Part shown: piece by piece, positions 21,226-41,381 of the stretch | Numbering within the stretch: position 1 is the stretch's first letter | Layout: every line of letters begins with the position of its first letter | Assembly: GCA_040880975.1 (NCBI GenBank) | Contig: JBBEEC010000029.1 | Coordinates: 31,054 to 95,053 of the forward strand | Reading direction: 5' to 3' | DNA length: 64,000 bases | Source: Bacteroidota bacterium | Lineage (GTDB): Bacteria > Bacteroidota > Ignavibacteria > UBA10030 | The notes under the pieces: model-generated | What the model was told of the DNA's origin: nothing | Database searches by the model: none | What the model saw: the letters and a program-made list of their open reading frames with translations, nothing else | Translations under genes and position numbers: made by a program

Positions 21226-22660
21226 GGCATCAAATTCGAAATTCGAATTTCGAAATTCGAATTTTACCTCACCGCTTCATCCAGGCAACTGGGTGGAGCG
21301 GTTTTTGTTTTTAGCACGCCACCTCTGGTCGGGAGCTCTGCTCCCCACTCATCCCCCCGCCACAAAACACGGCGGGCAAGCCCGCCAAAAATCGCGGCGG
21401 GCCCCGAAGGGGTCCCTTTGGGACAGGCCGTCCCCCTTCTCTCAAGAGAGAAGGGGGGGTGAGCACCACATCTGGTCGGGAGCTCTGTTCCCCACTCATC
21501 CCCCCGCCAAAAATCGCGGCGGGCCCCGAAGGGGTCCCTTTGGGACAGGCCAACCCGGGGGTGAGCACCAACTCTGGCCGGCTCTACTCCTCCTCGTTTC
21601 CATAGGCCAAAAAAAAACAAGGCATGTCATTCTGCCCGCCCCCGCCAGACCGCAGGCGGGCTGGCCGGCTGAAGTTTATTGAAGGCGGGCCGGGGAGTCC
21701 CGCCTTCCACAGCATTTCCAGGCGGGCGGGACGAAGAATCTGAACACCTCCGCTTAACAAAAGCTCGTATCGGCATAAAAGCTCGCTCATTATTCGTTGT
21801 CGGATTTTCTCACCCAACTCTGGTCGGGAGCTCTGCTCTCCACTCATCCCCCCCCGCCAAAAAACGGCGGGGCAGGCCTTCGGGAAAATTTCGGCCTCTT
21901 TCATCGCCCCGGGATACCTGTCCGCCTTTGGCGGAAATCCCGGGGCTAGATGACCTCATGTAGAGCACAATTCCCCTCCCCGATAAAAAGCATCGGGGCA
22001 GGAAAGGGGAATCCAAACCGTAAAACAGAAAACGACAAAGAACAAACTGAAATCAAACAGAGAGAAGAAAACACAAATAAACAGGGGGGGGTGGGATTTC
22101 TGAATAACAATTCCTTCACTGCGCGTGCCGTTTACTCGCCCCTAGCCCCCGAAATTTTGGCGGTGTGCGGTTGGTGACCTTTGGTGCGTTTAAGTCCCGG
22201 CACCGCCTTTTGCTTGAGTTTGCACCTCTCGCCGTGTGCCGGGACTTCGGCTAATCTCCGTTTTATCCTTGGCGGGGGGATATTATTTTGCGGTGTGTTT
22301 CCCCCTAATGGATATTCCATGGAGGGGTCCCTTCGGGAAAATTTCGGAAGAAAGTTCCCCCGCATCAATTCAAAATAGTGATTAAAGAGCGGGGTCCCGC
22401 TTCGCGGGATCTTTGCTACTTTTCCCGCTCTTTGGATCCCGTCATGAGCGGGATCCTGGAAGGCGGGACTCTTTTGAAGAGAAAGTAGGCCTGCGGCAGC
22501 AAAGAGTCGAGATTAATCCAACAGATCGGGCTTATTCCCTCTTGAACATCCTCATCCAAAGTAATTCGCCGAAAGCCCAGAGCCGATCAATGACGCCGGT
22601 ACTTCGTTACTCCACGAGTTAGGCGTCATTTGAGCCTGCGGGGGATAGAATAATGGGGAG
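21226..22660. repeat. ~1.4-kb non-coding repeat mosaic: AATTCGAA tandem repeats, ~100-145-bp tandem duplications (ctctggtcgggagctctgctccccactcatccccccgccaaaaa...), GTCCCTTTGGGAC-type hairpins, an A-rich ~190-bp element and a ~70-bp palindromic element (ctacttttcccgctctttggatcccg...cgggactcttttgaagagaaagtag)
   Basis: The same units recur at 23400-24200, 39560-40200 and 41990-42330. ORFs in this region are translations of the repeats. Confidence 0.8.
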
Positions 22661-22669
22661 TGTGTTACC

Positions 22670-22978
22670 CTACGAAAGCATCTGAGCAAGGTGTTTTCTT
22701 GAAGCGCCCAATGCCAGCAACGACCGAATTAGCAAATCAAGCGACACTGATGGATCGCCAGCTTCCATCTTTGCCACACGAGATTGGCTTGACTTCAATC
22801 GTCGGGCAAGTTCGTGTTGGGTCAGGTTCTTCTTTCGTCGCACCGCTTGGAGATTCTTGCTTAATGCCAACTTCAGTTCAATATAAGCAGCTTCTTCCTC
22901 TGAGAGATTCAGAAACTCCTGAACAGTTCCAAATTTCCAACCTTTGGCTTCAAGCCGACGGCGTTTTGCAGATTTCAT
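22670..22978 (-). CDS. higA: XRE-family HTH antitoxin (HigA-like)
   Basis: Contains the HTH NLTQHELARRLKSSQSRVAKMEAG. It lies 13 bp downstream of the toxin gene on the same strand. Confidence 0.7.
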   Translation of the reverse strand: MKSAKRRRLEAKGWKFGTVQEFLNLSEEEAAYIELKLALSKNLQAVRRKKNLTQHELARRLKSSQSRVAKMEAGDPSVSLDLLIRSLLALGASRKHLAQMLS

Positions 22979-22990
22979 ATTCTTGCTCCT

Positions 22991-23323
22991 TTACGTTGTA
23001 TCGTACATACGCAGACGCTGTTGACAGTTTCGAACTACTTCCTTCGGCGTCTTTTGAGTTTTCTTTTCAAAGATATCCACCACAAGGACTGCATTGTTAT
23101 CGATCCGATATACGATACGCCAGGTTGTCGTTTCATCCACAATCCGAAGTTCGTGGCAACGCTTACCAATCACTGGCATTGGACGTGACTGTGGTAACGA
23201 AAGCTTCTCCCCCATTTGCACCCGACGAAGCAGATAACCAGCTTCAATTCGTGCTTGGCGCGAGAACGGCGGTGTTTTTATTTCACCGTGGAGCCAACCA
23301 ATCTGCTTTGTCGATCTGTCCAT
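22991..23323 (-). CDS. higB: RelE/ParE-superfamily toxin, HigB/phage Gp49-like
   Basis: 110 aa. The motifs ...GKRCHELRIVDETTTWRIVYRIDNNAVLVVDIFEKKTQKTP fit the Gp49-like killer-protein family, which pairs with XRE antitoxins. Confidence 0.65.
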   Translation of the reverse strand: MDRSTKQIGWLHGEIKTPPFSRQARIEAGYLLRRVQMGEKLSLPQSRPMPVIGKRCHELRIVDETTTWRIVYRIDNNAVLVVDIFEKKTQKTPKEVVRNCQQRLRMYDTT

Positions 23324-23399
23324 GCGAGTATAAGATATGTCATTTCTGATATATAGTCAACACGGCGCAAACGAACGTCTAACACGCCCAATCCCGAAG

Positions 23400-24270
23400 G
23401 GATCCCTTCGGGACAACGACGCTCCCTCATTTTATAGGCGATGATGAAAATGATTGCTAGTGCCACTTCTTCTCTCCCGAGAGAAGGGGGGGTGAGCGCC
23501 ACATCTGGTCGGGAGCTCTGCGGTGGAACCTACGCCCACAAAGACATAGCGAAGGGGTCCCTTTGGGACAAGCCAACCCCTTCTCTCCCGAGAGAAGTGG
23601 GGGGTGAGCGGCACCACTGGTCGGATCTCATGTAGCGCGTGCCGTTTACTCGCCCCTAGCCCCCGAAATTTCGTCCTCTTTCATCGCCCCGGAATGAATT
23701 CCGGGGCTAGATTACCTCACGTAGAGCACAATTCCCCTAAAGGGGAATGGGCTTTCTGTCGACGGGACTTACTGCAGTGTGCTTTACCCATGCCCTTAGC
23801 CCCCGAAATCGCCGGCTGTGTGCGGTGGGCGGCTTAATCGTGCGTTTAATTCCGGCACCGTCCAATGGTCGAGTTTGTGATCTCGCCGTGTGCCGGAATT
23901 TCGGCCTATCTCCGTACTATCTAAGGTGCGGTGGGGATGGTTTGACAACGTGCGTTGCGATTTCGGCGCCCTTTTCTTTTCGTCCATTTTCTTTTGGGCG
24001 GGCAAAAGAAAATGGACTCGCCGAAGGCCCAGAGCCGATCAATGACTCTCCCTTGCATCTTTGCCTTCCCCAAGCTACCTTTCCCCAGCCAGCGGTAACC
24101 CAACGGGGACCAATTCCACATCACGTGAACATTTTCAGGGGCGTGGAATGGTCTTTTGAAGGGTGAGAACGGGAGGAACGCGGCAGAATGAACCTCTGGA
24201 TTCGGGTTTCCGATGAAGGAGGTTTTTGTGTTATGGAGTAGTTGAGTAGTGGAGTATGTGAGTATTTGAG
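23400..24270. repeat. repeat mosaic sharing units with 21226-22660 and 39560-40200, including palindrome ccattttcttttgggcgggcaaaagaaaatgg and GAGTAGT-like heptamers at 24230-24280
   Basis: There are several direct matches to other loci: gcgtgccgtttactcgcccctagcccccgaaatt, tagagcacaattcccctaaaggggaat and cccagagccgatcaatgac. Confidence 0.75.
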
Positions 24271-24306
24271 TAATTGTTGGCTTGGCCTTTCCTAATTGGA
24301 GGCAAA

Positions 24307-24618
24307 ATGGACACATCAACGTGGTTTTTATTGGCAGTCATGTCATTCTCTTGTGGATTCTTCACAACGCACGTTGCCAAGCTCAAAGGGTATGAACCAA
24401 TCGGTTGGTTTTTTGCGGGCTTTTTCTTTTGGATAATAGGCTTGATTGCTGTTATTGGGGTGCCCGAAAAACAAAGGGTTGTGCTCTCGAAGAAAGATGA
24501 AGAATGGATTTGTATGATCTGTAATTATGGAAGACGTGGCCGGGGCCTCTGTGGGATCTGCGGCAATGAACCAAAGTTTATTACTTTACCAAAACCGAGT
24601 CACTCTGCGGCCAGGTGA
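24307..24618 (+). CDS. small membrane protein with C-terminal zinc-ribbon (CxxC...CxxC)
   Basis: An SD-like GGAGG precedes the ATG at 24307. There are two hydrophobic helices, then CMICNYGRRGRGLCGICG. Confidence 0.45.
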   Translation: MDTSTWFLLAVMSFSCGFFTTHVAKLKGYEPIGWFFAGFFFWIIGLIAVIGVPEKQRVVLSKKDEEWICMICNYGRRGRGLCGICGNEPKFITLPKPSHSAAR

Positions 24619-24801
24619 CCGGCCGCTAAGCCGACGAAACCATTCACTATCTTCAGAATCTGGCCATCACCGCTTAAACAAGGCCCGCATAGGCATGAAA
24701 GCTTGAAAAACTTGGCAAAGGTCACCGGCGGCGATTCAAAAGCGGGGTTCTTCGTAATTCGAAGATTGTGCGCCGCCACCGGCTTAGAATGAGATAAGTA
24801 A

Positions 24802-25437
24802 ATGACCCAACCGACACCTCCGACAGAGTCCCAACCAAGCGAGCGGCAGAAAAAGAGATATGAGGTTTCGCTCGATACGCGGAAGTTTGAGATCGATCTG
24901 TTTTGGAGGCGTGCTCTCTTCTTCTGGGGGTTCATTGCCTCTGCCTTCGTAGCTTATGCAGCGTTTTCGAAGGATAGACCCGACGGTCCAACGATTTCTC
25001 TGATAATTTCTCTGTTTGGTCTGGTGTGCTCATTCAGTTGGACTCTTGTAAATCGTGGATCCAAATACTGGCAAGAGAACTGGGAATCGCAAGTTGACAA
25101 AGATGAAGATGCCGTCACAGGCCCGCTATTCAAACAACCCGCCGAACGTCAAAAGAAAGGTTGGTTTGGTGCTCAGAAGTTTTCAGTGAGCAAGCTTGCA
25201 ATTGCCTTAAGCGACTATGTTACGCTCGTTTGGGCTCTACTAATACTCCGCAGTGTGAGAGAAATACCCACAGTCAAGCGATTCTTGGAGGCGGACTGTT
25301 GGCCGTTTCATCTTCAAGACGATACCCTTGTTCTTGTCTTTCTTGTGTTCACGCTCGCTTGGTTGATATTTGTATTTATAAAGAGTGGAACAACAGAACG
25401 AACGCCGGGCGCTGGCGGCGCATCAACAACAGTCTAA
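24802..25437 (+). CDS. hypothetical multi-TM protein (possible SLATT-like 2TM effector; unverified)
   Basis: 211 aa. TM helices ALFFWGFIASAFVAYAAF and TISLIISLFGLVCSFSWTLV are followed by KYWQENWE and a C-terminal helix LVLVFLVFTLAWLIFVFI. Confidence 0.5.
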   Translation: MTQPTPPTESQPSERQKKRYEVSLDTRKFEIDLFWRRALFFWGFIASAFVAYAAFSKDRPDGPTISLIISLFGLVCSFSWTLVNRGSKYWQENWESQVDKDEDAVTGPLFKQPAERQKKGWFGAQKFSVSKLAIALSDYVTLVWALLILRSVREIPTVKRFLEADCWPFHLQDDTLVLVFLVFTLAWLIFVFIKSGTTERTPGAGGASTTV

Positions 25438-25448
25438 CCGAGGAGCCT

Positions 25449-26087
25449 TTGCCCGATACACTTTATCAGGAATTTGAGGATCCGACGGAGGCTTTTGCGC
25501 GCGAGCCCCGTGCCTTTTGCTACGATCTTGCCATAGGTCTCATCAATCAAGCTAAAGCGGAAGCAACCCTATCATGGTACACTCAGACAGAGAGCGTCAA
25601 GGCAATTATCCTGCTCCTCTATTGTTGGAATTTTGCAGCACGCGAAACGAAGAGACTCACATTTGATTCCGTTCGAAATGTACTCAGCACAAATGAACAG
25701 AATCTGCGATTATTGGAGCAGTACACACTACTAACGTTCGATGAGACATCTGAACTACCAATCCAAACCGTTTTCTCCCAATTCCGTGAGGCATTTGGAC
25801 AAACTGGAGCGACTAAAGCCTTGAGCTTGCTCAATCCCAGACTTTTTCTAATGTGGGATACGCGCATACGAGCCAGACTCCGAAGGGAACTTGTCCGCGG
25901 GCTCGACAACGGGCAAACCGAAGACCAATACATTCTGTTCTTGCGCAAAGTGCGCGATTATGCTGCTCAATATAATTTCCAGCAGAGGCTCGCACCCAAT
26001 GCAATCCTAGCGAAGAAAATCGATGAGTATCACTATGTCAGGATTGTGATGGCGCAAAGTGTTTTACACGTGCGGGATACCGCCTAA
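25449..26087 (+). CDS. hypothetical protein (start uncertain; TTG 12 nt after previous stop)
   Basis: The long ORF 25161-26087 overlaps the upstream gene. The first plausible start after its stop is TTG 25449. No recognisable motifs. Confidence 0.35.
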   Translation: MPDTLYQEFEDPTEAFAREPRAFCYDLAIGLINQAKAEATLSWYTQTESVKAIILLLYCWNFAARETKRLTFDSVRNVLSTNEQNLRLLEQYTLLTFDETSELPIQTVFSQFREAFGQTGATKALSLLNPRLFLMWDTRIRARLRRELVRGLDNGQTEDQYILFLRKVRDYAAQYNFQQRLAPNAILAKKIDEYHYVRIVMAQSVLHVRDTA

Positions 26088-26170
26088 CAGGCCGCACAAC
26101 GACGTGTGCTCACTTGAAATTGCAAAAATTAAGCTGTGTTAGGAATAACAATGGGAAGCGACGTTCTTGA

Positions 26171-26926
26171 TTGCCGAAAAGATCTATGAATTCAGATTGG
26201 CGTAGTCTATTGCCAAAAGAACTCGGCCCACTGCCATTCGACGGTGTGCTCACCAGAACGGAAGCCAACGGGTCAATTGATGCTCCCGTTACAGTGCTCG
26301 GAGTTTATCCCGCAGCAGTGCAGTGGCGTCATTTTGTTCGTGATGGAGTCAGGTTGAATTTGCCATCGAAAGTCGAAGAGCACTCTTTCGACCCCCTGTC
26401 CAAGTCAGGAAGCGACCTGGACAAACTCTACTTGCAACCTTTAGGTCTTTCTCGCGGGCATATTCTAGCGGTAGATTTAATGCCGTACTTCTTCGCGAAC
26501 ACTGCGAAGGATTCAAAGAGTCACCGCTCGATGTGGGATAATGTGCGGGACTATACCCGAATTACAGGTCGGAAAACTGCGATCGAACCAAGACCGCCAG
26601 AGGATAAACTCCTGCAAAGGTGTTGGTCGTTACCAGGCAATCAATCCCGTCTTCAAGAATATATTGCGCGAAAATCAGCTCGACTTCTTTTCACGCTTGG
26701 CAGAGAAGCAGCTGCATATGTTCGAGGACATAACCGTGCGATTGATGGACAACAGTATCTTTATTCCAAACCCAAAACGCTCGACCTTTTCGACAACTCT
26801 ATTCTCACCGTTCATTTTGTTCATCCAGGGAATCTTCAACGTTCCAATAACGGGAAGTGGAAAACAACCCACATCGATTGGTGCATAGAATCAGGCCGCG
26901 GATTTGTCAAGTCAGTTTTAGGATGA
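26171..26926 (+). CDS. hypothetical protein with uracil-DNA-glycosylase-superfamily-like motifs
   Basis: VTVLGVYPAA resembles UDG motif A (beta-strand + GxxPx, as in GQDPY/GEAPG). ILTVHFVHPGNL resembles motif B (HPSP) near the C-terminus. The ~190-aa spacing fits a UDG fold. Confidence 0.4.
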   Translation: MPKRSMNSDWRSLLPKELGPLPFDGVLTRTEANGSIDAPVTVLGVYPAAVQWRHFVRDGVRLNLPSKVEEHSFDPLSKSGSDLDKLYLQPLGLSRGHILAVDLMPYFFANTAKDSKSHRSMWDNVRDYTRITGRKTAIEPRPPEDKLLQRCWSLPGNQSRLQEYIARKSARLLFTLGREAAAYVRGHNRAIDGQQYLYSKPKTLDLFDNSILTVHFVHPGNLQRSNNGKWKTTHIDWCIESGRGFVKSVLG

Positions 26927-27078
26927 CGAACCCCCCGACACACGTACGCGAGCTGCGCCGACCGGTGTAAAAAAGGCAGACGACAGGCTCTTGTTGGTTC
27001 GCACCGCAATACGCCCGACGTTTGGTACCATGCCCCGCGAGAACTTGTCTTGCTGAACCGACTGGACGGAGAGTGCAA

Positions 27079-27687
27079 ATGATATCACCGACTCCTCAGA
27101 ATATTCCAAATGAAACCACCGTGCAGGATCTATCAAACCACTACCTGCTATCGTCGCTGCACAGTAGGTCGGCGTGGATATATTGCCCGACTCGACAAGA
27201 GGAGATCCGACTAGGTTATGACGCCTCACTCCAAAACGGGAAGACCGTCCTGCTTCAATACAAATCGCTTAGCTATGCGGGACGATATCTCGTTTCAATT
27301 CGTCTTGACCAGAGACAATTAGCGACTCTGCTTACCAATTTTCCCCAACGGACCACTCCGTATCTCTATTATGGGTTTTGCGACTACCGGTCTTATCGAG
27401 AATTAGACAACGATTTTCTGACAGTGGGCTCTCCAGAATTCTTTAGGCACATGTTGTTCATTGACATCCATTCTCTCGCACCGAATACGCATACTATCCG
27501 TCGTCACAACGATGGAAGCATGACCGGCTTCCCGAGCCAGCAGCAGTTGATTCCAGTGCGAGGACCGAGGATTGCTCAGGGAATCAGAACTTGCACGATT
27601 GGTACGCCAAATAGCAAGAATATGCTTCGGACCCTTCGAGACCGTATTCGAGGATTCACATTGTCAGTGTTGCGTTATGTCCCCTAG
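27079..27687 (+). CDS. hypothetical protein
   Basis: Internal Met (MISPTPQNIP) of the 221-aa ORF. No recognisable motifs. It is co-directional with neighbours. Confidence 0.4.
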   Translation: MISPTPQNIPNETTVQDLSNHYLLSSLHSRSAWIYCPTRQEEIRLGYDASLQNGKTVLLQYKSLSYAGRYLVSIRLDQRQLATLLTNFPQRTTPYLYYGFCDYRSYRELDNDFLTVGSPEFFRHMLFIDIHSLAPNTHTIRRHNDGSMTGFPSQQQLIPVRGPRIAQGIRTCTIGTPNSKNMLRTLRDRIRGFTLSVLRYVP

Positions 27688-27956
27688 AAATTGGTAACAC
27701 ATCAGGGTCCGGGAACATGGGCCTTCGCGCGCGGCACGAGCACCTAACAGCCGCAAAAACGGCGGTCACAACTGTGGAACAAACCAATGCATGCTGTTAC
27801 TCACGACCTAGATTTGCGGCGGAACGGAACAAGGTTTTTTTCCAGACCCTAGAGGGTGGCCCCGCGAGGTTAAGGCCTCTTCCTACTCCCAAATCAGCCT
27901 GATTTGTGTTACCTTTGGTTTGCACCCCCACGCATTCAAATCCAGACAAACAGTAA

Positions 27957-30900
27957 ATGAGCGCATTAAGAGACAACTACGCTAAAGGCACTGTCGGAGA
28001 ATTCCTTAAGGAAGTAATCCGACCGGGCTCAAAGCTCTCTTTCGTGTCTGCATACTTCACGATCTATGCCTACCAGCAACTGAAATCCCAACTGGATGGA
28101 ATCGATCATCTTCGATTTCTGTTTGGTGAGCCAAGGTTCATCAACTCGATTGACCCTTCGAAAACCAATCGCCGTGAATTCAGAATCGATGATGATCAAC
28201 TTGTGATTCCGATTGAAAACCGAATGTCACAAAAAGCGACTGCCAAGGAATGTGCCGAATGGATCAGCAAGAAGGTTGCTATCAAGTCGATGGTCAAGCC
28301 GAACTTCCTCCACGGTAAGCTCTATCATTTGGAAAACCCCAACGGAACAAAAGAATCCATCATGGGAAGTTCCAACTTCACTGTGAGCGGCCTCGGATTA
28401 GGTGGAAGGCACAATATTGAATTAAACATGGTCATCCAGGACCGCCGGGATGCAAACGAACTCGAAGAGTGGTTCAACGGCCTCTGGAACAATCAGGATG
28501 GCCTGGTAGAGGATGTTAAAGAACAGGTGCTGAAGTACCTCGATCAGTTTTATGTCGAAAATGAGCCGGAATTCATCTACTACAAGACCCTGTATCACAT
28601 TTTTGAGAAGTTTCTCGGCGAGCAAGACAAGGGGGGCCTCCTCAACAAGCAGATTGGCTTTTTCGAGAGCGAGATCTGGAGCATGCTTTACGACTTCCAG
28701 CAAGATGGCGTGAAGGGTGCGATCAACAAGATCCTGAAACACAACGGTTGCATTATAGCAGACAGCGTCGGTTTGGGAAAAACCTTCGAGGCCCTTGCTG
28801 TCATTCGCTATTTCGAGCTCCTGAACTGCCGAGTGTTGGTTCTGGTCCCGAAAAAACTCTCCAGCAACTGGACAGTATATCAAGCTGCACAAAACAACAT
28901 CCTTAATCCATTTCGCAAGGATCGTTTCAATTACACCGTCTTATATCACACGGACCTTGGCAGAGTACAAGGTGTTTCCGACGCAAACGGGATCGATCTT
29001 GAACGCTTCAACTGGGGTGCTTACGACCTCGTTGTCATAGACGAAAGCCACAACTTCCGCGGCAATCCTACGGAGAGAACAACCGATGACGGGGAAATCC
29101 GATTGAACCGTGCGAAGTGGTTGATGGAAAAGATCATTAAGGAAGGCACCAAAACGAAGGTCCTCCTGCTTTCGGCGACGCCGGTAAACAACAATCTACG
29201 TGACCTTAGAAATCAACTATTGCTCATCACCGAGGGACGCAAGGATGCATTGTTTGAAGCAACCCAGATAAAGGACATTGAACTTGCATTGAAGAATGCT
29301 CAGACCCAGTTCACGAATTGGGCTGACGCCAAGAAAAATCCTGTTCGAACCGTCAAGCAGTTGCTGGAACGGCTTGATTCCTCATTCTTCAAGCTCCTCG
29401 ACGAGATGACTATCGCTAGGAGCCGCAGGCACGTCAAGAGCTTCTACAACATCAAAGCGGTTGGAAGGTTTGCCGATCGATTGAAGCCACACGCTATCTA
29501 TCCGAGCATTGATGTGAAGGATCGATTCTTCACATATGATGCGTTGAATAAGAAGATCCTGGAATACAAGCTGTCCGTCTTCAATCCCTCAGCATATGTT
29601 AAGCCGGAAATGCAAAAGAAGTATGAAGATCTCGGTGCCGGGCAGGTTCTTGCATTCACCCAGAGCGACCGCGAGAATTTCCTCATCGGCATGATGAAGG
29701 TCAACTATCTCAAACGACTCGAAAGTTCGATCGAATCGTTCGAGATTTCTCTTGACCGCACAATTCGTAAGATCGAAGACCTTGAGAAACGCATTGCTGA
29801 ATTCAAGAAAGCGAAGCCAAATGGACAACAGGTGGATATAGGAGCGGCACAGCCTGAAGAAGACGAGTTTGAGGAGAATGCCGATGATCTGGAACAGTGG
29901 CAGGTGGGCAAGAAATTCAAGGTCGATATGGCCGATCTTCTATTGGACGATTGGCTAAGGGACCTCAATGCCGACAAGCAAGCTCTTTCCGTTCTCTATA
30001 ACGGTGCGGTTGCCGTAACTCCCGATCGGGATGCAAAGCTCAAAGAACTGAAAGACCAAATCGAAAAGAAGATTGAGCATCCTTTAAATGGCATCAACGA
30101 CAAGGTGATCGTGTTCACCGCTTTTGCCGATACAGCTGATTACCTGTACGGATGTCTCAAGGACTGGACAAGAAACGACCTGAAGAAACATATTGCCTTG
30201 GTGGCAGGCAGCTTCACAAAGACAACGCTGGGAAGAAATGATTTCGGAAACATTCTCACCAACTTCTCTCCCATTTCAAAGGACCGCGCCCGGCTTTCCG
30301 AAATGCCTCAGGGTGATGAAATTAGTATCCTGATTGCCACAGATTGCATCAGCGAAGGTCAGAATCTGCAGGATTGCGACTATGTGATCAACTATGACAT
30401 CCATTGGAATCCTGTTCGCATCATTCAGCGGTTTGGGCGCGTTGACCGCATAGGAACCAGGAATGAGAAGATTCAGCTTGTCAATTTCTGGCCTACAAAA
30501 GACCTCGACAATTATATCAATCTAAAAGAACGCGTTGAGGCTCGAATGGCCCTGGTGGACGTGACCGCAACCGGCGAAGACAATATCCTCAACACAGATC
30601 AACTTGAAGAACTGATAGAAGAAGACCTTAAGTATAGGAATCAGCAGCTGAAACGGCTGCGGGATGAAGTGCTTGACCTGGAGGATATGAACGAAAGCGT
30701 CACATTGACTGATTTTACGCTCGACGATTTCCGCGTCGAATTGACAAACTATATCGAGAGCAACAGGAAGCGACTCGAGGAAGCCCCGTTTGGTCTATAC
30801 GCGGTTGTCCCATCTCCATCAGGGGAGCATTCCAACGTTTTGGACGTGACTGCCTTCTCTGCGGCGGAAAGGGCAATTATCAAACCGGGTGTCGTGTATT

Positions 30901-31289
30901 GTTTGAAACAAAAAGGCGACACCGATGGCACCGAAGAAGTGAATCCTCTCCAGCCCTACTTCCTTGTCTACATTTGGGATGACGGACAAGTCAGGTTCAA
31001 CTACACCAATGCCAAGCAAATATTGGAGATCTATCGTCTGATGTGCCAGGGGCGAACCGAAGCCTTCCAAGGTCTGTGTGATCTCTTCAATGAAGAAACA
31101 CAACACGGAAAGAATATGTCGGCCTATACCGAGCGCCTGCAGAAAGCAGTGGAGGAGATCGTGCGTGTATTCAAGAAGAAGATGACACAGCGGATTACCA
31201 CAGACCGCGGTGGATTGATCATGCCGAAGTCAAAACAGGTGGATGAAGTCAACAATTTCGAGCTTGTCTCATGGTTGATTATTCGCTGA
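27957..31289 (+). CDS. PLD-family (HKD) nuclease fused to SNF2-family helicase (DISARM DrmD-like with DrmC-like PLD N-terminus)
   Basis: A single HKD motif is present: NFLHGKLYHLENPNGTKESIMGSSNFTVSGLG. SF2/SNF2 motifs I (ADSVGLGKTFEALAV), II (LVVIDESHNFRG), III (LLLSATPVNN) and V/VI (YDIHWNPVRIIQRFGRVDRIG) are also present. Length is 1110 aa. Confidence 0.8.
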   Translation: MSALRDNYAKGTVGEFLKEVIRPGSKLSFVSAYFTIYAYQQLKSQLDGIDHLRFLFGEPRFINSIDPSKTNRREFRIDDDQLVIPIENRMSQKATAKECAEWISKKVAIKSMVKPNFLHGKLYHLENPNGTKESIMGSSNFTVSGLGLGGRHNIELNMVIQDRRDANELEEWFNGLWNNQDGLVEDVKEQVLKYLDQFYVENEPEFIYYKTLYHIFEKFLGEQDKGGLLNKQIGFFESEIWSMLYDFQQDGVKGAINKILKHNGCIIADSVGLGKTFEALAVIRYFELLNCRVLVLVPKKLSSNWTVYQAAQNNILNPFRKDRFNYTVLYHTDLGRVQGVSDANGIDLERFNWGAYDLVVIDESHNFRGNPTERTTDDGEIRLNRAKWLMEKIIKEGTKTKVLLLSATPVNNNLRDLRNQLLLITEGRKDALFEATQIKDIELALKNAQTQFTNWADAKKNPVRTVKQLLERLDSSFFKLLDEMTIARSRRHVKSFYNIKAVGRFADRLKPHAIYPSIDVKDRFFTYDALNKKILEYKLSVFNPSAYVKPEMQKKYEDLGAGQVLAFTQSDRENFLIGMMKVNYLKRLESSIESFEISLDRTIRKIEDLEKRIAEFKKAKPNGQQVDIGAAQPEEDEFEENADDLEQWQVGKKFKVDMADLLLDDWLRDLNADKQALSVLYNGAVAVTPDRDAKLKELKDQIEKKIEHPLNGINDKVIVFTAFADTADYLYGCLKDWTRNDLKKHIALVAGSFTKTTLGRNDFGNILTNFSPISKDRARLSEMPQGDEISILIATDCISEGQNLQDCDYVINYDIHWNPVRIIQRFGRVDRIGTRNEKIQLVNFWPTKDLDNYINLKERVEARMALVDVTATGEDNILNTDQLEELIEEDLKYRNQQLKRLRDEVLDLEDMNESVTLTDFTLDDFRVELTNYIESNRKRLEEAPFGLYAVVPSPSGEHSNVLDVTAFSAAERAIIKPGVVYCLKQKGDTDGTEEVNPLQPYFLVYIWDDGQVRFNYTNAKQILEIYRLMCQGRTEAFQGLCDLFNEETQHGKNMSAYTERLQKAVEEIVRVFKKKMTQRITTDRGGLIMPKSKQVDEVNNFELVSWLIIR

Positions 31290-31296
31290 ATCAAGA

Positions 31297-34200
31297 ATGA
31301 ACGAAGACATCAAGAGAAGAATTGAGCAGTCTCTTAGGTCGTTTGCGCAGGGAGACCTGACCAAGAATTCCATTGGTCTCTTCCAGACGCTCGGGTATGC
31401 AACGGATCGGCAAGCGCCTCTCGACAAACCAACGTACTCAAATTTCAAAGACTCCTTTGTTCAGGTTGACTCTCGATTCAACGAGGAGAAGGCCCAGACA
31501 AAGGAATGGAAGTGCGTTAACCTTCTCTTCCAGCTAACAAAGGACGAAGTCTCCCGGGACAAGTCGTTGTTTGATACGAAGCAGGTTGACCGCACGATTA
31601 TCGAGACATACCTGTTCTTTGTTATCGAACTCGCACGGCCAGAGTACAGCCGGACAGCTCTTAGCCACATCACACGTGAAGTGAACCGGCTTTTTCCGAT
31701 GCCGACATTAGTTCTCTTCAAACATGGCGGCTCGCTAACACTCTCTGTGATTGACCGACGGTTGCACAAGCGGGATGAAGCGAAAGATGTGCTGGAGAAA
31801 GTTACGTTGATCAAAGATATCAACATCACCTCCCCGCATCGCGCACACATTGACATACTGTTTGACCTCTCACTCCCTGAACTCACGCGCCGGCACTCGC
31901 CGACAAACTTCGTTGAACTGCATGGGGCATGGCGGGCAACGCTCAACATATCCGAACTGAACAAGAAATTTTACAGGGAAATCGCTGCGTGGTATTTTTG
32001 GGCTGTTCGGAGTGTCAAATTCCCACTTCCCTCGAAGGCTACAAACGAGAAGGCCAACCGAGAAATCAACGTCATTCGATTGCTCACCCGTCTCATATTC
32101 GCCTGGTTTCTCAAGGAGAAGAATCTTCTGCCAGATGACTTGTTTGACCGAATGGCCTTATCAAAGCTCCTAAGAGAATTCGATCCAACTAGCGGCAAGA
32201 AGTCAGTCTACTACAAGGCAATTCTACAGAACCTCTTCTTCGCCACACTCAACCAGAAGATGAATACGAAGGAGGAGCCGGACAATCGGCGCTTTCGGTC
32301 GAACAAACGTGGCTATCACAACTATTCTGAAGACTACGGTGTCAAGAATCTTTATCGTTATGAAGAATTGTTCTCTGACACCGGGACGGCTTTGAATTTG
32401 TTTTCTTCAGTTCCGTTCCTCAATGGTGGTCTGTTTGATTGCTTGGATAAGGAGGATCCCGACAAGAAAAACCTCATTGTGCACATCGATGGGTTTTCGG
32501 ATGTGCCGGCAAACCAACCAACGGTTCCAGATGAGGTGTTCTTTGGCCAAGAAGGCGAAATCGATCTCAGCGAGGTATACGACGATAGAAGGAAAAAGCA
32601 CGAACGGGTTCGTGGCTTGGTCCACATTCTGAAGGATTATAAGTTCACAATCGCTGAGAACACTCCGGTTGAAGAAGAAATTGCCCTCGATCCGGAATTG
32701 CTTGGCCAGATCTTTGAAAACCTCCTTGCCGAATACGTTCCCGAAACGGGAACAACGGCACGAAAACGGACCGGGAGTTTCTACACACCCCGCGAGATTG
32801 TCAATTATATGGTCGACGAAAGCCTCCTTGCATACTTAAGAGAGAAGATGCTGCGGGAAAATCCCGCGATCCTTGATGTTGGATCTGAACAGAGTGACGC
32901 TTTCGGCAACAAGGCACGCAAGGGACAACTAAGACTTGAACACAAGTTGGAGCCCAACCGTTGGCACAAAATCTCGGAAAAGCTGGACAACGAGTTGCGG
33001 AAGCTCCTCTCGTATACCGATGAATCTCTCGACTTCACAGAGCGGGATACGGAAGCCTTGATAGAAGCAATTCATTCCATGAGAGTGCTTGATCCCGCAT
33101 GTGGCTCGGGTGCCTTTGTCATGGGTGTCCTCCTCAAAGTTGTACACGTGCTTCACAAACTGGACCCTGAGAACAGTCGTTGGAAGGAGCAACAGCTTGC
33201 CGCCGTAAAGGACATGACCGCCGCCGATCTTCGTCGTGGGACCGTTGAGAGAATAGAGGAGGCCTTCAGTGCACAGAACAACTACGCCGACTACAGTCGC
33301 AAGCTCTTCCTGATCGAGGATTGCATCTACGGCGTAGACATCCAACCCATTGCTGTTCAGATTGCCAAGCTCAGATTCTTTATTTCACTGCTTGTTGACC
33401 AAAAGAACAACGATCAGAAACCAAATCGTGGTGTGCTTTCGCTCCCGAACCTTGAGACAAAGTTCGTTGCTGCCAACACACTTGTCAGCCTTGGCGGACA
33501 GGATGTACTCAAGCCCAAGGAGTTTCATGAGTTTGAAGAGAAGCTGAGGCGAGTGCGGCATGAATATTTCAATGCACGGACACGAAAGGACAAGCTGCAC
33601 TGCATCGAGGAGGACCGGAAACTAAGGCTAGTAATAGCGGAAACTCTAAAAAATCTTGGAATGCCCAAAAGTGTCATTGAGCTTCTGGCTCATTGGGACC
33701 CGTACGATCAGAATGGTGTAGCCGGTTTTTTCTCTGCAGATTGGATGTTCAGCCTCGACAAGGGTTTCGACGTTGTTATCGGCAATCCTCCTTACCTTCG
33801 AGTGCAGGGTTTGCAACAAACCCAACCGGAGTTCATTCCATACTACCGCGAGCGATACAAGTCAGCTACCGGCAATTTTGATCTCTATGCACTATTCATC
33901 GAGCGCGGATACGAACTTCTGTCCATAACCGGCATGCTCGCGTACATTGTTCCCCACAAGTTCTTCCAGGCCAGTTTTGGAGAAGGGTTGCGCCGTTTAC
34001 TCACGGCAAAGAAAGCGCTGGCACAAGTGGTTCGCTTCGGCGCCGCGCAAGTGTTTGAGGAATCGACGACGTACACATGCCTTCTCTTCTTGTCAGCAAA
34101 GGAACAAAGGGAGTTTGATCTCCTTGAAGTTAAGAGCCTTGAGAATGGTGAAGAGGTGCTCCAACACGCACGATGGAGGAATCAGCACCCGGAATACGTT

Positions 34201-35325
34201 TTTGAAACTCTACCAGAACCTGAGAAAACTGATTGGGATTTCTCAATCGGGGAATCTGGCCAAATACTGAAGCGAATGCATCAGCATCCAAAGAAGTTGG
34301 GCGAGCTAACTCATAAGATCTTCCAAGGCCTCGCCACCAGTGCGGATAAGCTTTACGTATTGGAAATCCGACATGAGGAAGAAAACACATATCGCTGCTA
34401 CTCAAGATATAATGAAACGGAATTCGAAATTGAGAAAGCTCTCGTGAAGCCGTTTCTAATGGGCAAAGATGTCCACAGGTACGAACCTGCTGTTGCCCGA
34501 AACGTTGTGATTTTTCCATACCATATCGATGAAGATACTCCCAAGCTAATGACCGCCGCATTCCTAAAGAAGGAGGCACCGTTAGGATGGAAATACTTGA
34601 AGGGAAATAGAGACGCCCTTGCCGGACGTGAAAGGGGGAAGATGGACCATGAGGAATTCTATGCCTACATCTATCCCAAGAACCTCACCGCCTTCGAATC
34701 GATCAAGATCATGACACCGGAAATTTCCCTCGGTTGCAACATGACGCTTGACTTCGAGGGGAGGCTCTACCACACCACAAAGGTCTACAGCTTTGTATTC
34801 AAAGACACCAAGAAGACTCCAACAAAGTATATGCTCGGTTTGCTCAACTCGAGAGTCCTATGGTTCTTTCTCATGAAGACGGGGTACGTGTTGCGTGGAG
34901 GGTACTACACTTTCAAAACGGATTACTTAAAACCATTCCCAATCCCAGATTCCAGCAAAGAACATCAGCAATCAATCGAAACACTTGTTGAATACGTCCT
35001 GCATTTAAAGGCAAAACCAGGAAGGGGCCCATCCGAGACGGCTCAAACTGACCTGATGACAGCATTTTTCGAGCAGCTTATCGATGGGATTGTTTACGAG
35101 TTGTACTTCCCAGAGGAATTCAAGAGCCTCGATCGAAGCGTTGCCCGTATGCTGGCTCATAACCCAATGCCCCCCCTTGCAAGCCTCAAAGGAAACAAGA
35201 AGGATGCAATTGAGGGGGTCTTCAAGAATGTGTATGACCGGGAATCAGAAATCAGAAAGGCGTCGTTCTTCATCGAGTCCATTGAATCTGCTCGGATCAT
35301 TGAGAATGCGACACGGAAGAAATGA
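31297..35325 (+). CDS. gamma-class N6-adenine DNA methyltransferase, Eco57I/PglX/DrmMI-like, with long N- and C-terminal (target-recognition?) extensions
   Basis: Motif X FYTPREIV, motif I VLDPACGSGAFV and motif IV VVIGNPPYLRV are present. Length is 1342 aa. The gene starts 8 bp after the helicase stop. Confidence 0.85.
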   Translation: MNEDIKRRIEQSLRSFAQGDLTKNSIGLFQTLGYATDRQAPLDKPTYSNFKDSFVQVDSRFNEEKAQTKEWKCVNLLFQLTKDEVSRDKSLFDTKQVDRTIIETYLFFVIELARPEYSRTALSHITREVNRLFPMPTLVLFKHGGSLTLSVIDRRLHKRDEAKDVLEKVTLIKDINITSPHRAHIDILFDLSLPELTRRHSPTNFVELHGAWRATLNISELNKKFYREIAAWYFWAVRSVKFPLPSKATNEKANREINVIRLLTRLIFAWFLKEKNLLPDDLFDRMALSKLLREFDPTSGKKSVYYKAILQNLFFATLNQKMNTKEEPDNRRFRSNKRGYHNYSEDYGVKNLYRYEELFSDTGTALNLFSSVPFLNGGLFDCLDKEDPDKKNLIVHIDGFSDVPANQPTVPDEVFFGQEGEIDLSEVYDDRRKKHERVRGLVHILKDYKFTIAENTPVEEEIALDPELLGQIFENLLAEYVPETGTTARKRTGSFYTPREIVNYMVDESLLAYLREKMLRENPAILDVGSEQSDAFGNKARKGQLRLEHKLEPNRWHKISEKLDNELRKLLSYTDESLDFTERDTEALIEAIHSMRVLDPACGSGAFVMGVLLKVVHVLHKLDPENSRWKEQQLAAVKDMTAADLRRGTVERIEEAFSAQNNYADYSRKLFLIEDCIYGVDIQPIAVQIAKLRFFISLLVDQKNNDQKPNRGVLSLPNLETKFVAANTLVSLGGQDVLKPKEFHEFEEKLRRVRHEYFNARTRKDKLHCIEEDRKLRLVIAETLKNLGMPKSVIELLAHWDPYDQNGVAGFFSADWMFSLDKGFDVVIGNPPYLRVQGLQQTQPEFIPYYRERYKSATGNFDLYALFIERGYELLSITGMLAYIVPHKFFQASFGEGLRRLLTAKKALAQVVRFGAAQVFEESTTYTCLLFLSAKEQREFDLLEVKSLENGEEVLQHARWRNQHPEYVFETLPEPEKTDWDFSIGESGQILKRMHQHPKKLGELTHKIFQGLATSADKLYVLEIRHEEENTYRCYSRYNETEFEIEKALVKPFLMGKDVHRYEPAVARNVVIFPYHIDEDTPKLMTAAFLKKEAPLGWKYLKGNRDALAGRERGKMDHEEFYAYIYPKNLTAFESIKIMTPEISLGCNMTLDFEGRLYHTTKVYSFVFKDTKKTPTKYMLGLLNSRVLWFFLMKTGYVLRGGYYTFKTDYLKPFPIPDSSKEHQQSIETLVEYVLHLKAKPGRGPSETAQTDLMTAFFEQLIDGIVYELYFPEEFKSLDRSVARMLAHNPMPPLASLKGNKKDAIEGVFKNVYDRESEIRKASFFIESIESARIIENATRKK

Positions 35326-37160
35326 GAATAAAGCAGATCGAAATCAAAGACTTCAAAGCATTTGCTGGTGAATACCCTTCTATCAAGCTTGATGGAAAGA
35401 GTTTGCTGGTATATGGCGAGAACGGGAGCGGCAAATCATCACTTGCACAAGCGCTGGACCAATTTGTAGAAACATCGACTGGAATGTTGAAGTTTGGCGA
35501 CTTCAAGAACATCTTTGCGCATGCTAATGATGGGTTCGTAAAGCTGACTTGCGAAGGCTTCGACGCTGCGGGAAATCCCGATCCAGAGAATGGCATCTAT
35601 GAGTGGTCAGAAACCTCTGATATGGTTGGCCAGGATCTCTTTGTTGACGCCTCCAAGACAAAGGGATTTCTTGACTACAAACGTTCACTCGCTGTCTATT
35701 TGCATCCAAAAGACGCGAATAGGATCGATGTTTTCGACCTCTTGATGCGGAACTTGCTTTCGCGATTTGTGAATCCGGTGAGCCGCTCAACCTTTGGAGA
35801 TGAACTTGGGGTGATGGAGCAACGCGTAAGGGCCTACTGGTATCAAGGCAACCTGAACGTCCTCAAAAGGCATTTGAGAGATTTTAATGCTGGTTTATCA
35901 GCAGTTCTTAAGGAATTGAACACCAAGGCTTCCGACATTCTCACAGAATTCGAAACAGGTGTCACCATCAGATTGGCACCTGCAAGGCTTTCTTATGGGC
36001 GGCCGCCGAAACGCTTGAAGAGGTCGCACATCGGGCTGTTTGTCCAGTACTACGGAAGAAAAATTCATCAACCTCATCTGTTTCTGAACGAAGCCAGATT
36101 ATCGGCTGTTGCCATTTCCATTTTCCTTGGTTCAATGCTGATTCAGCCATCAAGCAAGATCAAACTTCTTATCCTGGATGACATGCTCATCGGGTTGGAT
36201 TTTTCCAACCGAATGCCGTTGTTGAATGTGTTGAAAAAGCACTTCAATGACTACCAAGTGTTTATGTTGACATTTGACAGAAATTGGTTTGAGATCGCAA
36301 AGGCACTTCTGGCAAATGGCTGGGGAGCTTGTGAGATGTACGTGAGCGAACACAAGGAAGGCCCAGTCGGCGCCGAGGTAGTCATCGGTAACAAGCCTCA
36401 AATCGTCCAACCTTCAGACAGCTATCTTGACAAGGCGAAAAAGTACTTTGAAGCATTCGATTATCCAGCTGCGGCAAACTACCTTAGGAAGCGATGTGAA
36501 GAGTTGATCGACGATCTGCTTCCACTCTCCTACAAGATCGAACCGACCAACGGCTTTGGATCGAGGGAAATAACAAAACTGGATGGATTGATTGACAGAT
36601 TAAAGATGCTCTTCGAGGACTGTGAGGAATCAGCACCTCGTGCAGTTGAAAGCTTATTAAGGCTTCTCAAGAAGGCTACACTAAATCCGATGTCGCACCA
36701 CGATCTCGAGAGTCCAATCTACAGGGTTGAAGTTGAGCAGCTCTTTGATCTTGTGGACGAACTTGCCAACTTACCGAGATTGAAAAGACAGATTTGCCTC
36801 AAGGCCGGAAGCAGAGCTGCATATCATTTCACGGATGCCACGCGCGAATACAGCATCGATATAGAGCTAGTTGCAGACCTGCTTGTGATCACTGTGAACG
36901 GCAATAGTCGGTTTAACAAAGCGAAGTGGAAGATAGCAACGTGGGCGCTGAATGGGGTTGAGTTCTCTAGCATGGATCTCGCAAACCATCAGAGGCTAGG
37001 ACCTGATATCATCGAGAAAACGTGCGCCCAAGAGAGGCATCTCGAAGGAATAGCGAATGGTGTGTTTGGACCGCGTGGACTTGCCGTCACCCCACCGCGG
37101 GATGTCTTGGCGGAATTCAAAGTGACGAATGGTGGTACGTTGAGGGACTTGTTAGAGTAA
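35322..37160 (+). CDS. ABC/SMC-like (AAA_15/AAA_21-type) ATPase
   Basis: The N-terminus IEIKDFKAFAGEYPSIKLDGKSLLVYGENGSGKSSLAQAL carries Walker A, and KIKLLILDDMLIGLDFSN carries Walker B plus D-loop. The start ATGA overlaps the methyltransferase stop. Confidence 0.7.
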   Translation: MRIKQIEIKDFKAFAGEYPSIKLDGKSLLVYGENGSGKSSLAQALDQFVETSTGMLKFGDFKNIFAHANDGFVKLTCEGFDAAGNPDPENGIYEWSETSDMVGQDLFVDASKTKGFLDYKRSLAVYLHPKDANRIDVFDLLMRNLLSRFVNPVSRSTFGDELGVMEQRVRAYWYQGNLNVLKRHLRDFNAGLSAVLKELNTKASDILTEFETGVTIRLAPARLSYGRPPKRLKRSHIGLFVQYYGRKIHQPHLFLNEARLSAVAISIFLGSMLIQPSSKIKLLILDDMLIGLDFSNRMPLLNVLKKHFNDYQVFMLTFDRNWFEIAKALLANGWGACEMYVSEHKEGPVGAEVVIGNKPQIVQPSDSYLDKAKKYFEAFDYPAAANYLRKRCEELIDDLLPLSYKIEPTNGFGSREITKLDGLIDRLKMLFEDCEESAPRAVESLLRLLKKATLNPMSHHDLESPIYRVEVEQLFDLVDELANLPRLKRQICLKAGSRAAYHFTDATREYSIDIELVADLLVITVNGNSRFNKAKWKIATWALNGVEFSSMDLANHQRLGPDIIEKTCAQERHLEGIANGVFGPRGLAVTPPRDVLAEFKVTNGGTLRDLLE

Positions 37161-37374
37161 TGGATAGCGAGGGAACCATCGCATTTCGCCTATTGAGTTT
37201 CGCACAGGTGATGGTACCGCAAATAGGGGAAAAGGGCTTCATATCTCGGTGGCAACAATGCCGATGTCACCGAGCGGCTTTGTCCTGAGTGCCAGCGTGG
37301 GATGCCGGGGATAGGGTAGTGGATATGATGGGACTCAATAGTACAAATCGAGAGATCGACCGGATTGTGCACAT

Positions 37375-38658: not shown

Positions 38659-38847
38659 CTGGGTAAGAACTACGTTTGTGGATTGTTATACTCAGCCCAT
38701 GATTCGGTCGCGAGCATAGAGATTGACCCTTTGATTTAGGAGCGGTACGGTTAACGCGTAAACTCCCTTACCGTCGCTTGGGTATGCCAGACGTTATTTG
38801 TAATGCCGCCTAAGCTGAGTCGCGCGTAAAAGAACAGAGGAGTCCAC

Positions 38848-39246
38848 ATGCCCCAAGCGGAGATTTCCGGAATATCACCTTTTTTTATCGTGAGCAACGT
38901 GCCGTCGTCGCTTTCGTTCTACCGGGACCGGCTTGGATTTGAAGTCACCTTCCAGGGGCCTTCTCCGGACGATATCTTCTTCGGAATTGTCCGCAGGGGC
39001 GGTGCACAGATCCTGCTCAAAGACGTTGGCGTAGCTCCTCTTCCGAACTATAAGCGAGACGTCGGAAAAGGGTTCGCCCGGTGGGACGCATTCGTTGTCG
39101 TCCCGGATCCTGATGCACTTGCGGCCGAATTTGCCTCGCGCAATGTGGAGTTTTCCGAACCGCTGAATGACACCGAAGACGGCCTGCGTGGTTTCGAGGT
39201 CAAGGACCCCGATGGCTATGTCTTGTTCTTCGGCCGTCCCCGATAA
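38848..39246 (+). CDS. VOC-family glyoxalase/bleomycin-resistance-like protein
   Basis: 132 aa with a glyoxalase-like fold signature. Its 3' half and downstream sequence are duplicated at 41439-41700, and a remnant lies at 40219-40285. Confidence 0.65.
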   Translation: MPQAEISGISPFFIVSNVPSSLSFYRDRLGFEVTFQGPSPDDIFFGIVRRGGAQILLKDVGVAPLPNYKRDVGKGFARWDAFVVVPDPDALAAEFASRNVEFSEPLNDTEDGLRGFEVKDPDGYVLFFGRPR

Positions 39247-39249
39247 ATC

Positions 39250-40700: not shown

Positions 40701-40711
40701 CGAGGATATCA

Positions 40712-41327: not shown

Positions 41328-41381
41328 GGGTGACTACTCCTTTAACTTTGGATTCCGGGGAAAATTCCCCCTAAACTGAGT

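Follow-up and report, generated by a model that had tools for sequence, protein, structure and literature searches.

The window analysed here, a stretch of 64,000 nucleotides from a Bacteroidota MAG, contains a gene for a 246-aa protein that is a divergent member of the UDG superfamily, belonging to a very rare and uncharacterised lineage; the gene is part of a defence island acquired by horizontal transfer. The reading we favour, with a probability of roughly 0.5, is that the protein acts as a stand-alone, monofunctional glycosylase, and that its gene would be a single-gene antiviral module directed, by analogy with the Brig proteins, against a modified cytosine-type base. This is the most likely reading in view of pocket residues that are under selection, of the rarity of the family, of the lack of fixed partner genes and of the recurrence of defence or mobile settings around the homologues. 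Several observations count against it, namely the missing matches in PADLOC, NCBIfam and PHROG, a homologue located between repair genes in one locus, and loci where only anonymous genes are found.

Gene, fold and distribution of the family

The open reading frame described in the earlier note is real: it spans 26171..26926 on the plus strand and gives 251 aa from a TTG start, the stop codon being included in the span. The ATG at 26186 is the start in the NCBI gene model (P0001, named "MAG: hypothetical protein, Bacteroidota bacterium"), in an independent gene call and in all homologues, and residues are counted from it. Scans for sigma-70 promoters and terminators around the gene gave counts equal to or lower than the shuffle expectation; Bacteroidota promoters lie outside the model used. 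The positions of the gene, of its motifs and of the surrounding genes are collected in Table 1.

Table 1. Positions, within the window, of the gene, of its predicted functional segments and of its neighbours.
Feature	Position	Strand	Remarks
Cpn60 gene	19591-21225		one border of the island
Low-G+C island holding the UDG-like gene	22000..42000	.	composition; Pfam and PADLOC matches
8xMP membrane protein (PF24838)	24802-25437	+	
Uncharacterised gene, 212 aa	between 8xMP and UDG-like gene	+	98-bp gap before UDG-like gene
UDG-fold protein CDS	26186..26926	+	246 aa, stop codon included in the span; ATG start, begins MNSDW
Motif A equivalent, G39-V-Y-P-A43 (in VTVLG-VYPA)	26300..26314	+	after core strand beta1, residues 35-39
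Beta-hairpin insertion, residues 45-63, family-specific	26318..26374	+	DSSP strands 45-52 and 55-63; absent from the aligned family-4 segment
E64...F68 segment	26375..26389	+	profile-to-PDB alignment with 4zbx
D97-L-M-P-Y-F-F-A-N105, end of strand beta2	26474..26500	+	alignments to 4zbx and 1ui0
R114-S-M-W-D-N119	26525..26542	+	family alignments; model helix 116-127
Motif B equivalent, V-H210-F-V-H213-P-G-N-L217, residues 209-217	26810..26836	+	after strand 204-211; aligned to 1ui0 "mfHPAYLLRN"
Uncharacterised gene, 202 aa	after UDG-like gene	+	152-bp gap after UDG-like gene
HKD+Snf2	27957-31289	+	270-bp gap after the 202-aa gene; PADLOC C3a139, 437 bits, E 5e-131
Eco57I/type IIG-like N6-adenine methyltransferase	31297-35325	+	
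SMC-like/AAA ATPase	35322-37160	+	
Uncharacterised gene, 427 aa	after SMC-like ATPase	+	
Glyoxalase-family gene	38848-39246		other border of the island

Taken alone, the sequence evidence for the UDG fold is weak, and it is the predicted structure that decides. The Pfam UDG profile (PF03167) scores the protein at 18.7 bits (E 0.0019), against a gathering threshold of 24.3 bits; the alignment runs over residues 34-227 of the 251-aa translation from the TTG and over profile positions 4-126 of 141, and spans both motifs. Relatives of the protein are above the same cut-off (P0070 with 41.6 bits, P0072 with 35.5, P0058 with 31.5, P0066 with 31.4 and P0019 with 29.9). A sequence search of the PDB returned nothing for the single protein and, for a profile of seven sequences, only non-significant matches to unrelated proteins (E >= 0.14); the protein has no match in PADLOC or PHROG, and none in NCBIfam at E <= 0.1. 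The AlphaFold2 model, obtained with seven homologues as input, has a mean pLDDT of 91.2 and a pTM of 0.88, and displays an alpha/beta fold with a central parallel sheet, as in the solved UDGs. In the earlier note a lack of similarity to the UDG fold had been named as the outcome that would speak against its proposal; the Foldseek comparison with the PDB gave the opposite, with a probability of 1.00 and with all the 36 matches at E <= 1e-3 being family-4 UDGs or UdgX, while MUG, TDG and SMUG come next in the structural matching of the model. No Brig3 entry is found among the PDB matches listed. That the protein has the UDG fold can be considered almost certain, and the assignment to the superfamily, originally made from the letters of the sequence, is sustained both by this match and by the relatives that pass the Pfam threshold.

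Members of this family are found very seldom. Searches of 5.8 billion proteins retrieved 7 clusters, or 18 when a profile served as the query; when 1.84 billion representatives were searched exhaustively with a profile, 157 proteins had E <= 1e-3. The 35 representatives with E <= 1e-30 constitute the close family, and the remainder of the 157 falls into two sister subfamilies, whose members are about 250 aa long. Carriers amount to 3 of 185,579 species-representative genomes, all of them Myxococcota MAGs, to which the present gene of a Bacteroidota MAG and five additional metagenome loci with homologues are to be added. Every source names the family members as "hypothetical protein" only.

Almost all representatives of the close family (34 of about 35) are stand-alone proteins. 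P0020 is a genuine fusion, seen on three contigs, of the UDG-like domain with a domain of 335 aa, in which a PD-(D/E)xK-like motif was spotted by eye. This C-terminal domain has no match in Pfam, PDB or PADLOC, and no UDG-like genes were found beside its stand-alone homologues.

The distribution also bears on an origin of the gene from phages, either as a phage-derived gene or as the anti-defence remnant that had been proposed in the earlier note. Phages encode family-4-like UDGs and polymerases with UDG-like domains, and these provide the best structural matches in BFVD; the matches are limited to family-4 UDGs of a generic kind and to UDG domains fused to polymerases, with 9-18% identity. 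Against this origin, no relatives of the family were found in IMG/VR, among the INPHARED phages or among the PLSDB plasmids; neither the gene nor its neighbours have a PHROG match, phage structural or integrase genes are not present nearby and the window contains no tRNA. This origin is regarded as extremely improbable, and the proposal of a phage remnant finds no support in these collections.

Active-site motifs and predicted base specificity

Residue conservation was counted on 22 close family members, which share 32-60% identity, and on a wider alignment of 41 sequences; the profile of these 41 was aligned to the S. tokodaii and T. thermophilus family-4 UDGs, and the correspondences were confirmed via the member P0070. 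The two motifs GVYPA and VHFVHPGNL, pointed out in the earlier note, are both found in the translation at the positions given there, and their assignment to motifs A and B is correct, each lying directly after a core strand, at the UDG motif positions.

Motif A has the family consensus G-(V/L)-(Y/H/F)-P-(A/T/G). G39 is conserved in 21 of the 22 members and P42 in all of them; position 40 is V, L, T or A in 22/22, and the following Tyr, found in 18 members, is replaced by His in two and by Phe in two, so that the residue before the Pro is Y, H or F also in 41/41 sequences of the wider alignment. The Tyr stands at the position occupied by the catalytic Asp in family 1 and by Asn in MUG, SMUG, Brig1 and Brig3, the Val at that of the Glu of family 4 and UdgX. 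Since motif A is devoid of every polar catalytic residue of families 1-4, Brig1 and Brig3, catalysis is not assured.

The other residues of the predicted pocket are strongly conserved. E64 is present in 22/22 members and aligns with E51 of the S. tokodaii enzyme (StoUDG), an alignment that makes it a candidate for a catalytic role; it is not retained in the sister subfamilies. F68, found in 22/22 and in 41/41 sequences, aligns with the base-stacking Phe, F55, of StoUDG. D97 (21/22) occupies the position of StoUDG N82, the uracil-reading Asn of the "ITN" segment, and one sister subfamily retains Asn here, in "ITNLVK". P100 (22/22) and Y101 (21/22) follow in the same segment. In motif B, H213 (21/22) lines up with the His that family 4 has in this motif, and H210 and P214 are conserved in 22/22; S72, R155, T170 and W225 are invariant too. 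The loop after motif B is a probable DNA-intercalating wedge, by analogy with Leu272 of UNG and N225 of Brig3. Further elements are specific to the family: an N-terminal extension of 34 residues and an insertion of about 30 residues (105-135), where the helix opened by RSMWDN, the most conserved family-specific motif, is located.

Family-4 UDGs (T. maritima 1L9G, T. thermophilus 1UI0, S. tokodaii 4ZBX) have the same strand order and the same motif positions, and the PF stacking Phe, the "RP..E" segment, the TLG strand and the motif-B His are aligned. Indeed, S74-G75 corresponds to their (S/A)G helix cap, written (A)AG in the profile alignment, and the TLG-E-A segment to their third core strand. 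Identity is only 13-15%, and there are several differences: GE(A/G)PG is replaced by GVYPA, the uracil-reading Asn by Asp97, the four-Cys 4Fe-4S cluster of family 4 is missing, and the N-terminal 34 residues, the hairpin 45-63 and the insertion 105-135 are extra in the present protein. The latter has two Cys, and the family has from none to eight, none of them conserved, so that the Fe-S cysteine set is missing. Membership of family 4 was rejected, as neither TIGR00758 nor NF040953 is matched and the motif-A Glu, the Cys set and the Asn of ITN are all missing.

In family-5 UDGs motif A is GLAPA and has no polar catalytic residue. The T. thermophilus enzyme (2D3Y) shares with the present protein such a non-polar motif (GVYPA in the latter); it differs in having kept the Fe-S cluster and the Asn, and sequence identity is 12%. 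Family-5 identity was rejected for the absent Fe-S cysteine set and for the replacement of the uracil-reading Asn by D97, and family-1 UNG membership for the absence of the GQDPY and HPSPLS motifs. Judged from these alignments, the family is set apart from every classical UDG family by its motif A, by Asp in place of Asn and by the absence of the Fe-S cysteines.

These comparisons have a bearing on a first alternative, a horizontally acquired repair glycosylase that would rid the host's own DNA of uracil or of a damaged base and have no dedicated immune role. Among solved structures, the nearest are those of repair UDGs, of families 4 and 5, and the protein retains both the stacking Phe and the His of motif B; conversely, the Asp found instead of the uracil-reading Asn, the loss of the motif-A Glu and of the Fe-S cysteines, and the lack of a match to any NCBIfam UDG family model are at odds with it, as is the extremely sparse and patchy distribution.

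UdgX from M. smegmatis (6AIL) has, like the present protein, an insertion after strand beta2, and the family insertion 105-135 sits where UdgX has its KRRIH loop. This loop, which bears the cross-linking His109, and the Glu of GEQPG are both absent here, and TIGR03914 gives no match, on which grounds UdgX membership was rejected. H109 falls on E134, a position that is variable in the family (E in 7, R in 4, L in 3, others including Q), and therefore a covalent mechanism of the UdgX type is unlikely.

A family-specific insertion at the site of a cross-linking loop, together with a motif A devoid of polar catalytic residues, is also compatible with a catalytically dead or very slow reader of modified bases, which, in analogy to UdgX, would bind to foreign DNA or be trapped on it, and so block replication directly or mark the DNA for a nuclease such as HKD-Snf2. 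The fusion of P0020 to a domain with a PD-(D/E)xK-like motif goes in the same direction, and a glycosylase fold is used as a sensor in the END nucleases, which contain inactivated EndoIII sensor domains (PMC12191111). However, the stand-alone members, which are nearly the whole family, have no fixed partner, and a pure sensor would then have no effector; the residue at the His109 position is not conserved (E/R/L/Q), HKD-Snf2 is missing from every homologous locus, and the invariant E64 and near-invariant D97 resemble an active pocket. A reader of this kind is considered improbable.

Returning to the glycosylase that we favour, the residue at position 97 offers an indication about its target. 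In Brig1 the equivalent of StoUDG N82 is E147, which is essential and has been proposed to bond the Watson-Crick face of glucosyl-hmC, and the equivalent of the base-stacking F55 is Y121 (PMC11078745). An Asp in the wall of the 5hmC pocket of Brig3, D127, is likewise indispensable (Mejia-Pitta et al. 2026 preprint). Moreover, replacement of Asn with Asp in the human, E. coli and HHV1 UNG (N204D, N123D and N147D, respectively) gives cytosine-excising enzymes (PMC11289083). Since an acid is found at the N82 position in Brig1, Brig3 and UNG N204D, D97 would point to a cytosine-type base and not to uracil or thymine; as far as the alignment can tell, the specificity residue argues against plain uracil. 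Excision of ordinary cytosine would be lethal, and thus the target is presumably a modified cytosine-type base, for example 5hmC or a glycosyl-hmC-like base, provided that the geometry of the pocket leaves room for a C5 substituent.

Relation to defence glycosylases and genomic setting

Protection against phages whose DNA carries modified C or T can be conferred by single genes of the UDG superfamily. Brig1, Brig2 and Brig3 are stand-alone proteins of this superfamily, encoded in defence islands or integrons: Brig1 is an alpha-glucosyl-5hmC DNA glycosylase that protects against T-even phages, rare (42 homologues), located in defence islands and closest to the S. tokodaii family-4 enzyme (Hossain et al. 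2024, PMC11078745); Brig2 is a defence glycosylase against modified thymidines; Brig3, whose sequence has the GenBank accession PX942695, is a 5hmC DNA glycosylase with a partner, BapA, which is ASCH-like (Mejia-Pitta et al. 2026 preprint). In the study of Getz et al., only one of the seven UDG-like proteins tested from integrons gave protection from the phages used, which counts against the reading favoured here.

The present protein resembles Brig1 in being a stand-alone UDG-superfamily gene product of about 250 aa, in its rarity and in its location in a defence island, as well as in the aromatic stacker (Y121 in Brig1, F68 here) and in the acid at the N82 position (E147 and D97, respectively), where a local similarity is also evident between E-L-Y-P-W of Brig1 and D-L-M-P-Y. 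Brig1 differs in its motif A, GLNPG with Asn, and in having homologues mostly in Actinobacteria. With the Brig1 sequence taken from the supplement of PMC11078745, hhalign gave a probability of 0.3%, aligning only 25 columns around motif A, and BLASTP an E of 0.95; membership of the Brig1 family was rejected. With Brig3 the protein shares the divergent UDG-superfamily character, the Asp of the predicted pocket, an aromatic lining of this pocket and, probably, a wedge residue in a C-terminal loop. Brig3 has in motif A N50-P51-S52 followed by E55, against Y/H/F-P-A/T/G with no conserved Glu three residues further on in the present family, a comparison based on published residue numbers only; in addition, it has an overlapping partner gene, whereas none is conserved beside the present family. 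By analogy, the protein would be Brig-like in its action, and it is not a demonstrated member of a Brig family.

The genomic setting is that of an island with a G+C content of 0.47-0.51 between about 22 and 42 kb, compared with 0.53-0.56 in the flanks. The defence context recognised in the earlier note is thereby corroborated, both by this lower G+C and by the HKD+Snf2, N6-adenine methyltransferase and SMC/AAA ATPase genes found downstream. From 24802 to 38658 every gene is on the plus strand. The name 8xMP, given to the membrane protein encoded upstream, retrieved only unrelated PDB codes from the literature.

The proximity of these genes raises the question of whether the protein could be an accessory subunit of a restriction-like system formed by the adjacent HKD-Snf2, methyltransferase and ATPase. 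The genes share the same strand and one island, and the UDG-like gene lies within 1 kb of that for HKD-Snf2; however, another gene and a 270-bp gap separate it from the HKD-Snf2 operon, and no gene of this system is found beside any homologue. Indeed, tblastn with 17 proteins of the window and all-against-all tblastx over 12 independent loci revealed no conserved neighbour, the UDG gene being the only one in common, and the idea of an operon partner or accessory subunit was rejected on this basis; the probability left to it is very small. With no neighbour in common, the UDG-like gene would seem to be a mobile module of one gene that moves independently.

The surroundings of the homologues are diverse, and only about six of the loci are on contigs longer than 15 kb, a sample below the size needed for enrichment statistics. 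In the Sandaracinus locus (L003), a GmrSD_N-SLFN protein and a type I HsdR are encoded within 5 kb of the homologue; L021 has a WYL-WCX regulator, two AAA+ proteins, a caspase-like protease and a PDC-S02/YhcG nuclease; L013 contains genes for a MkoA-like helicase and REase-ARP, HD and IetA-like proteins. Transposases are found in L005 and L015, and only small anonymous genes in L010 and L012. In L013 the homologue is directly between addAB-like and sbcCD-like genes, and the same arrangement is found in L014, which are the two loci in favour of the repair glycosylase considered above; against it stand the location of the present gene in a low-G+C island amid defence genes and the lack of a conserved neighbourhood. 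Taken as a whole, the pattern of loci is more in keeping with an accessory gene for defence than with a core gene for repair, and a role in repair of host DNA, though possible, is unlikely.

Proposed mechanism and significance

From the pocket residues and the genomic settings we infer catalytic activity, a cytosine-type substrate and an antiviral role for the protein. In the mechanism that we propose, it would scan DNA, extrude a non-canonical pyrimidine from the helix and take it up in its pocket, where F68 would stack on the flipped base and the carboxylate of D97 would read the Watson-Crick face, accepting the 4-amino group of a cytosine-type base in preference to uracil or thymine. H213 and the motif-B loop would clasp the backbone and occupy the space that the flipped base has vacated. 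The N-glycosidic bond would then be hydrolysed; as no polar residue is available in motif A (GVYPA), the invariant E64 is the best candidate for the positioning of the water molecule. The resulting abasic sites in phage DNA would block phage replication, while the DNA of the host would be spared because the modification is absent from it; the methyltransferase of the island is of the N6-adenine type.

A more far-reaching version of this proposal, which we hold only tentatively and consider unlikely in its entirety, is that with this family the UDG fold has been recruited for immunity a fourth time, independently and with a chemistry of its own, characterized by a tyrosine-based G-x-Y-P-A motif A, where Asp, Asn or Glu is absent as a catalyst, and by an Asp as specificity residue. 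It would excise a cytosine hypermodification outside the range of Brig1 and Brig3, for example a beta-glucosyl, an arabinosyl or another C5- or N4-substituted cytosine; in the lineages with P0020, it would be wired to a nuclease-like domain, giving a glycosylase-guided, modification-dependent restriction enzyme.

Defence by base excision has been recognised only since 2024, with Brig1 and then with the Brig2, Brig3 and Dag families, and each newly found defence glycosylase has led to a different targeted modification of phage DNA. The concept is already established, and more such families are expected; were the protein an ordinary repair enzyme, the finding would be a minor one. What is new here is a family distinct from Brig1 by sequence and without the motif-A residues reported for Brig3, in which an uncommon motif A with Tyr goes together with an Asp at the specificity position, and whose hosts are environmental Bacteroidota and Myxococcota, bacteria whose phages and DNA modifications are almost unexplored; these features make the protein a reasonable candidate for biochemistry. 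If active, the protein would widen the range of modified bases known to be sensed by bacteria and would provide a compact enzyme of 246 aa for the mapping or editing of modified cytosines; furthermore, it would show whether the switch from Asn to an acid can generally be used, throughout the UDG superfamily, to predict cytosine-type specificity.

Neighbouring genes in the island

Downstream of the UDG-like gene lies an apparent operon of four genes. The first encodes a protein with HKD (PLD) and Snf2 helicase domains, corresponding to the PADLOC candidate C3a139, and the second a 1342-aa Eco57I/type IIG-like N6-adenine methyltransferase that carries a TaqI-like specificity domain; these are followed by an SMC/AAA ATPase, with weak mad3/LmuB-like matches, and by a 427-aa protein of no assigned family. 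This is apparently a restriction-type system resembling DISARM and BREX.

The island also contains a gene for an 8xMP protein ("octameric membrane protein"; PF24838, E 5e-34), followed 11 bp on by a 212-aa gene; the two possibly constitute a membrane module. Searches of Pfam, PADLOC, NCBIfam and PHROGs gave no match for the 212-aa gene, nor for the island genes of 229, 139 and 202 aa.

Coordinates of the genes discussed
Feature	Location	Details
Cpn60-family gene	window 19591-21225	5 kb upstream of UDG-like gene
Island gene	window 22660-23349	229 aa
Island gene	window 23747-24166	139 aa
8xMP gene and 212-aa gene	window 24802-26087	
Island gene	window 27079-27687	202 aa
HKD-Snf2 operon	window 27957-38658	four genes
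GmrSD-Schlafen gene	L003:12990-15278 (-)	762 aa; Sandaracinus
UDG homologue and two genes of no assigned family	L013:9405-11512	178 and 264 aa (the two genes)
Cpn60 gene	L015:6357-7937 (GCA_038231075.1)	1.2 kb from UDG homologue
P0020 gene	L021:8001-9773; L022:122-1894	590 aa
P0168	L017:6001-6987	stand-alone C-terminal-domain homologue
P0241	L019:6001-7008	stand-alone C-terminal-domain homologue
P0176	L020:6001-6945	stand-alone C-terminal-domain homologue

Homologues and their genomic contexts

A Cpn60 gene accompanies a UDG-like gene twice, in the window and in L015. The two contigs are unrelated, the Cpn60 proteins are 61% identical and the UDG homologue 33%, and the arrangement of the genes is not alike; the recurrence could reflect coincidence or a common insertion hotspot. 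In L013, the UDG homologue and its two companions are flanked by addAB-like genes on one side and sbcCD-like genes on the other; among the contexts, this alone would fit a role in repair. The UDG homologue of the Sandaracinus locus has, at a distance of 2 kb, a gene whose product combines a GmrSD N-terminal domain with a Schlafen AlbA_2 domain and which adjoins a type I HsdR; GmrSD performs type IV restriction of glucosyl-hmC DNA.

More distant relatives (P0058, P0066-P0070, P0073, P0075, P0083 and P0088) form a sister subfamily of UDG-fold proteins of about 250 aa, with the motifs GAYP(S/T), ITNLVKVFLFK, in which the Asn is kept, and HLAHPGI. They score above the Pfam UDG threshold and weakly match the NCBIfam family-4 and UdgX models; they may represent a uracil- or thymine-type counterpart.

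The fusion protein P0020

P0020, a family member found on three contigs from separate samples, is a true fusion of the UDG-like domain with a 335-aa C-terminal domain that has no match in Pfam, PDB or PADLOC. This domain also occurs alone, in more than 243 clusters of about 310-350 aa forming a family without annotation. In all three contexts examined, the stand-alone homologue adjoins a gene of metallo-beta-lactamase/RMMBL (beta-CASP-like) fold (about 420-450 aa), with REase-ARP, HNH or resolvase genes close by; the pair may be a new two-gene module.

The C-terminal domain of P0020 contains the stretch HSDIDLWGF...LFELKK, similar by eye to a PD-(D/E)xK nuclease motif. The protein would thus join a glycosylase fold to a putative nuclease, a layout that recalls modification-dependent restriction enzymes.
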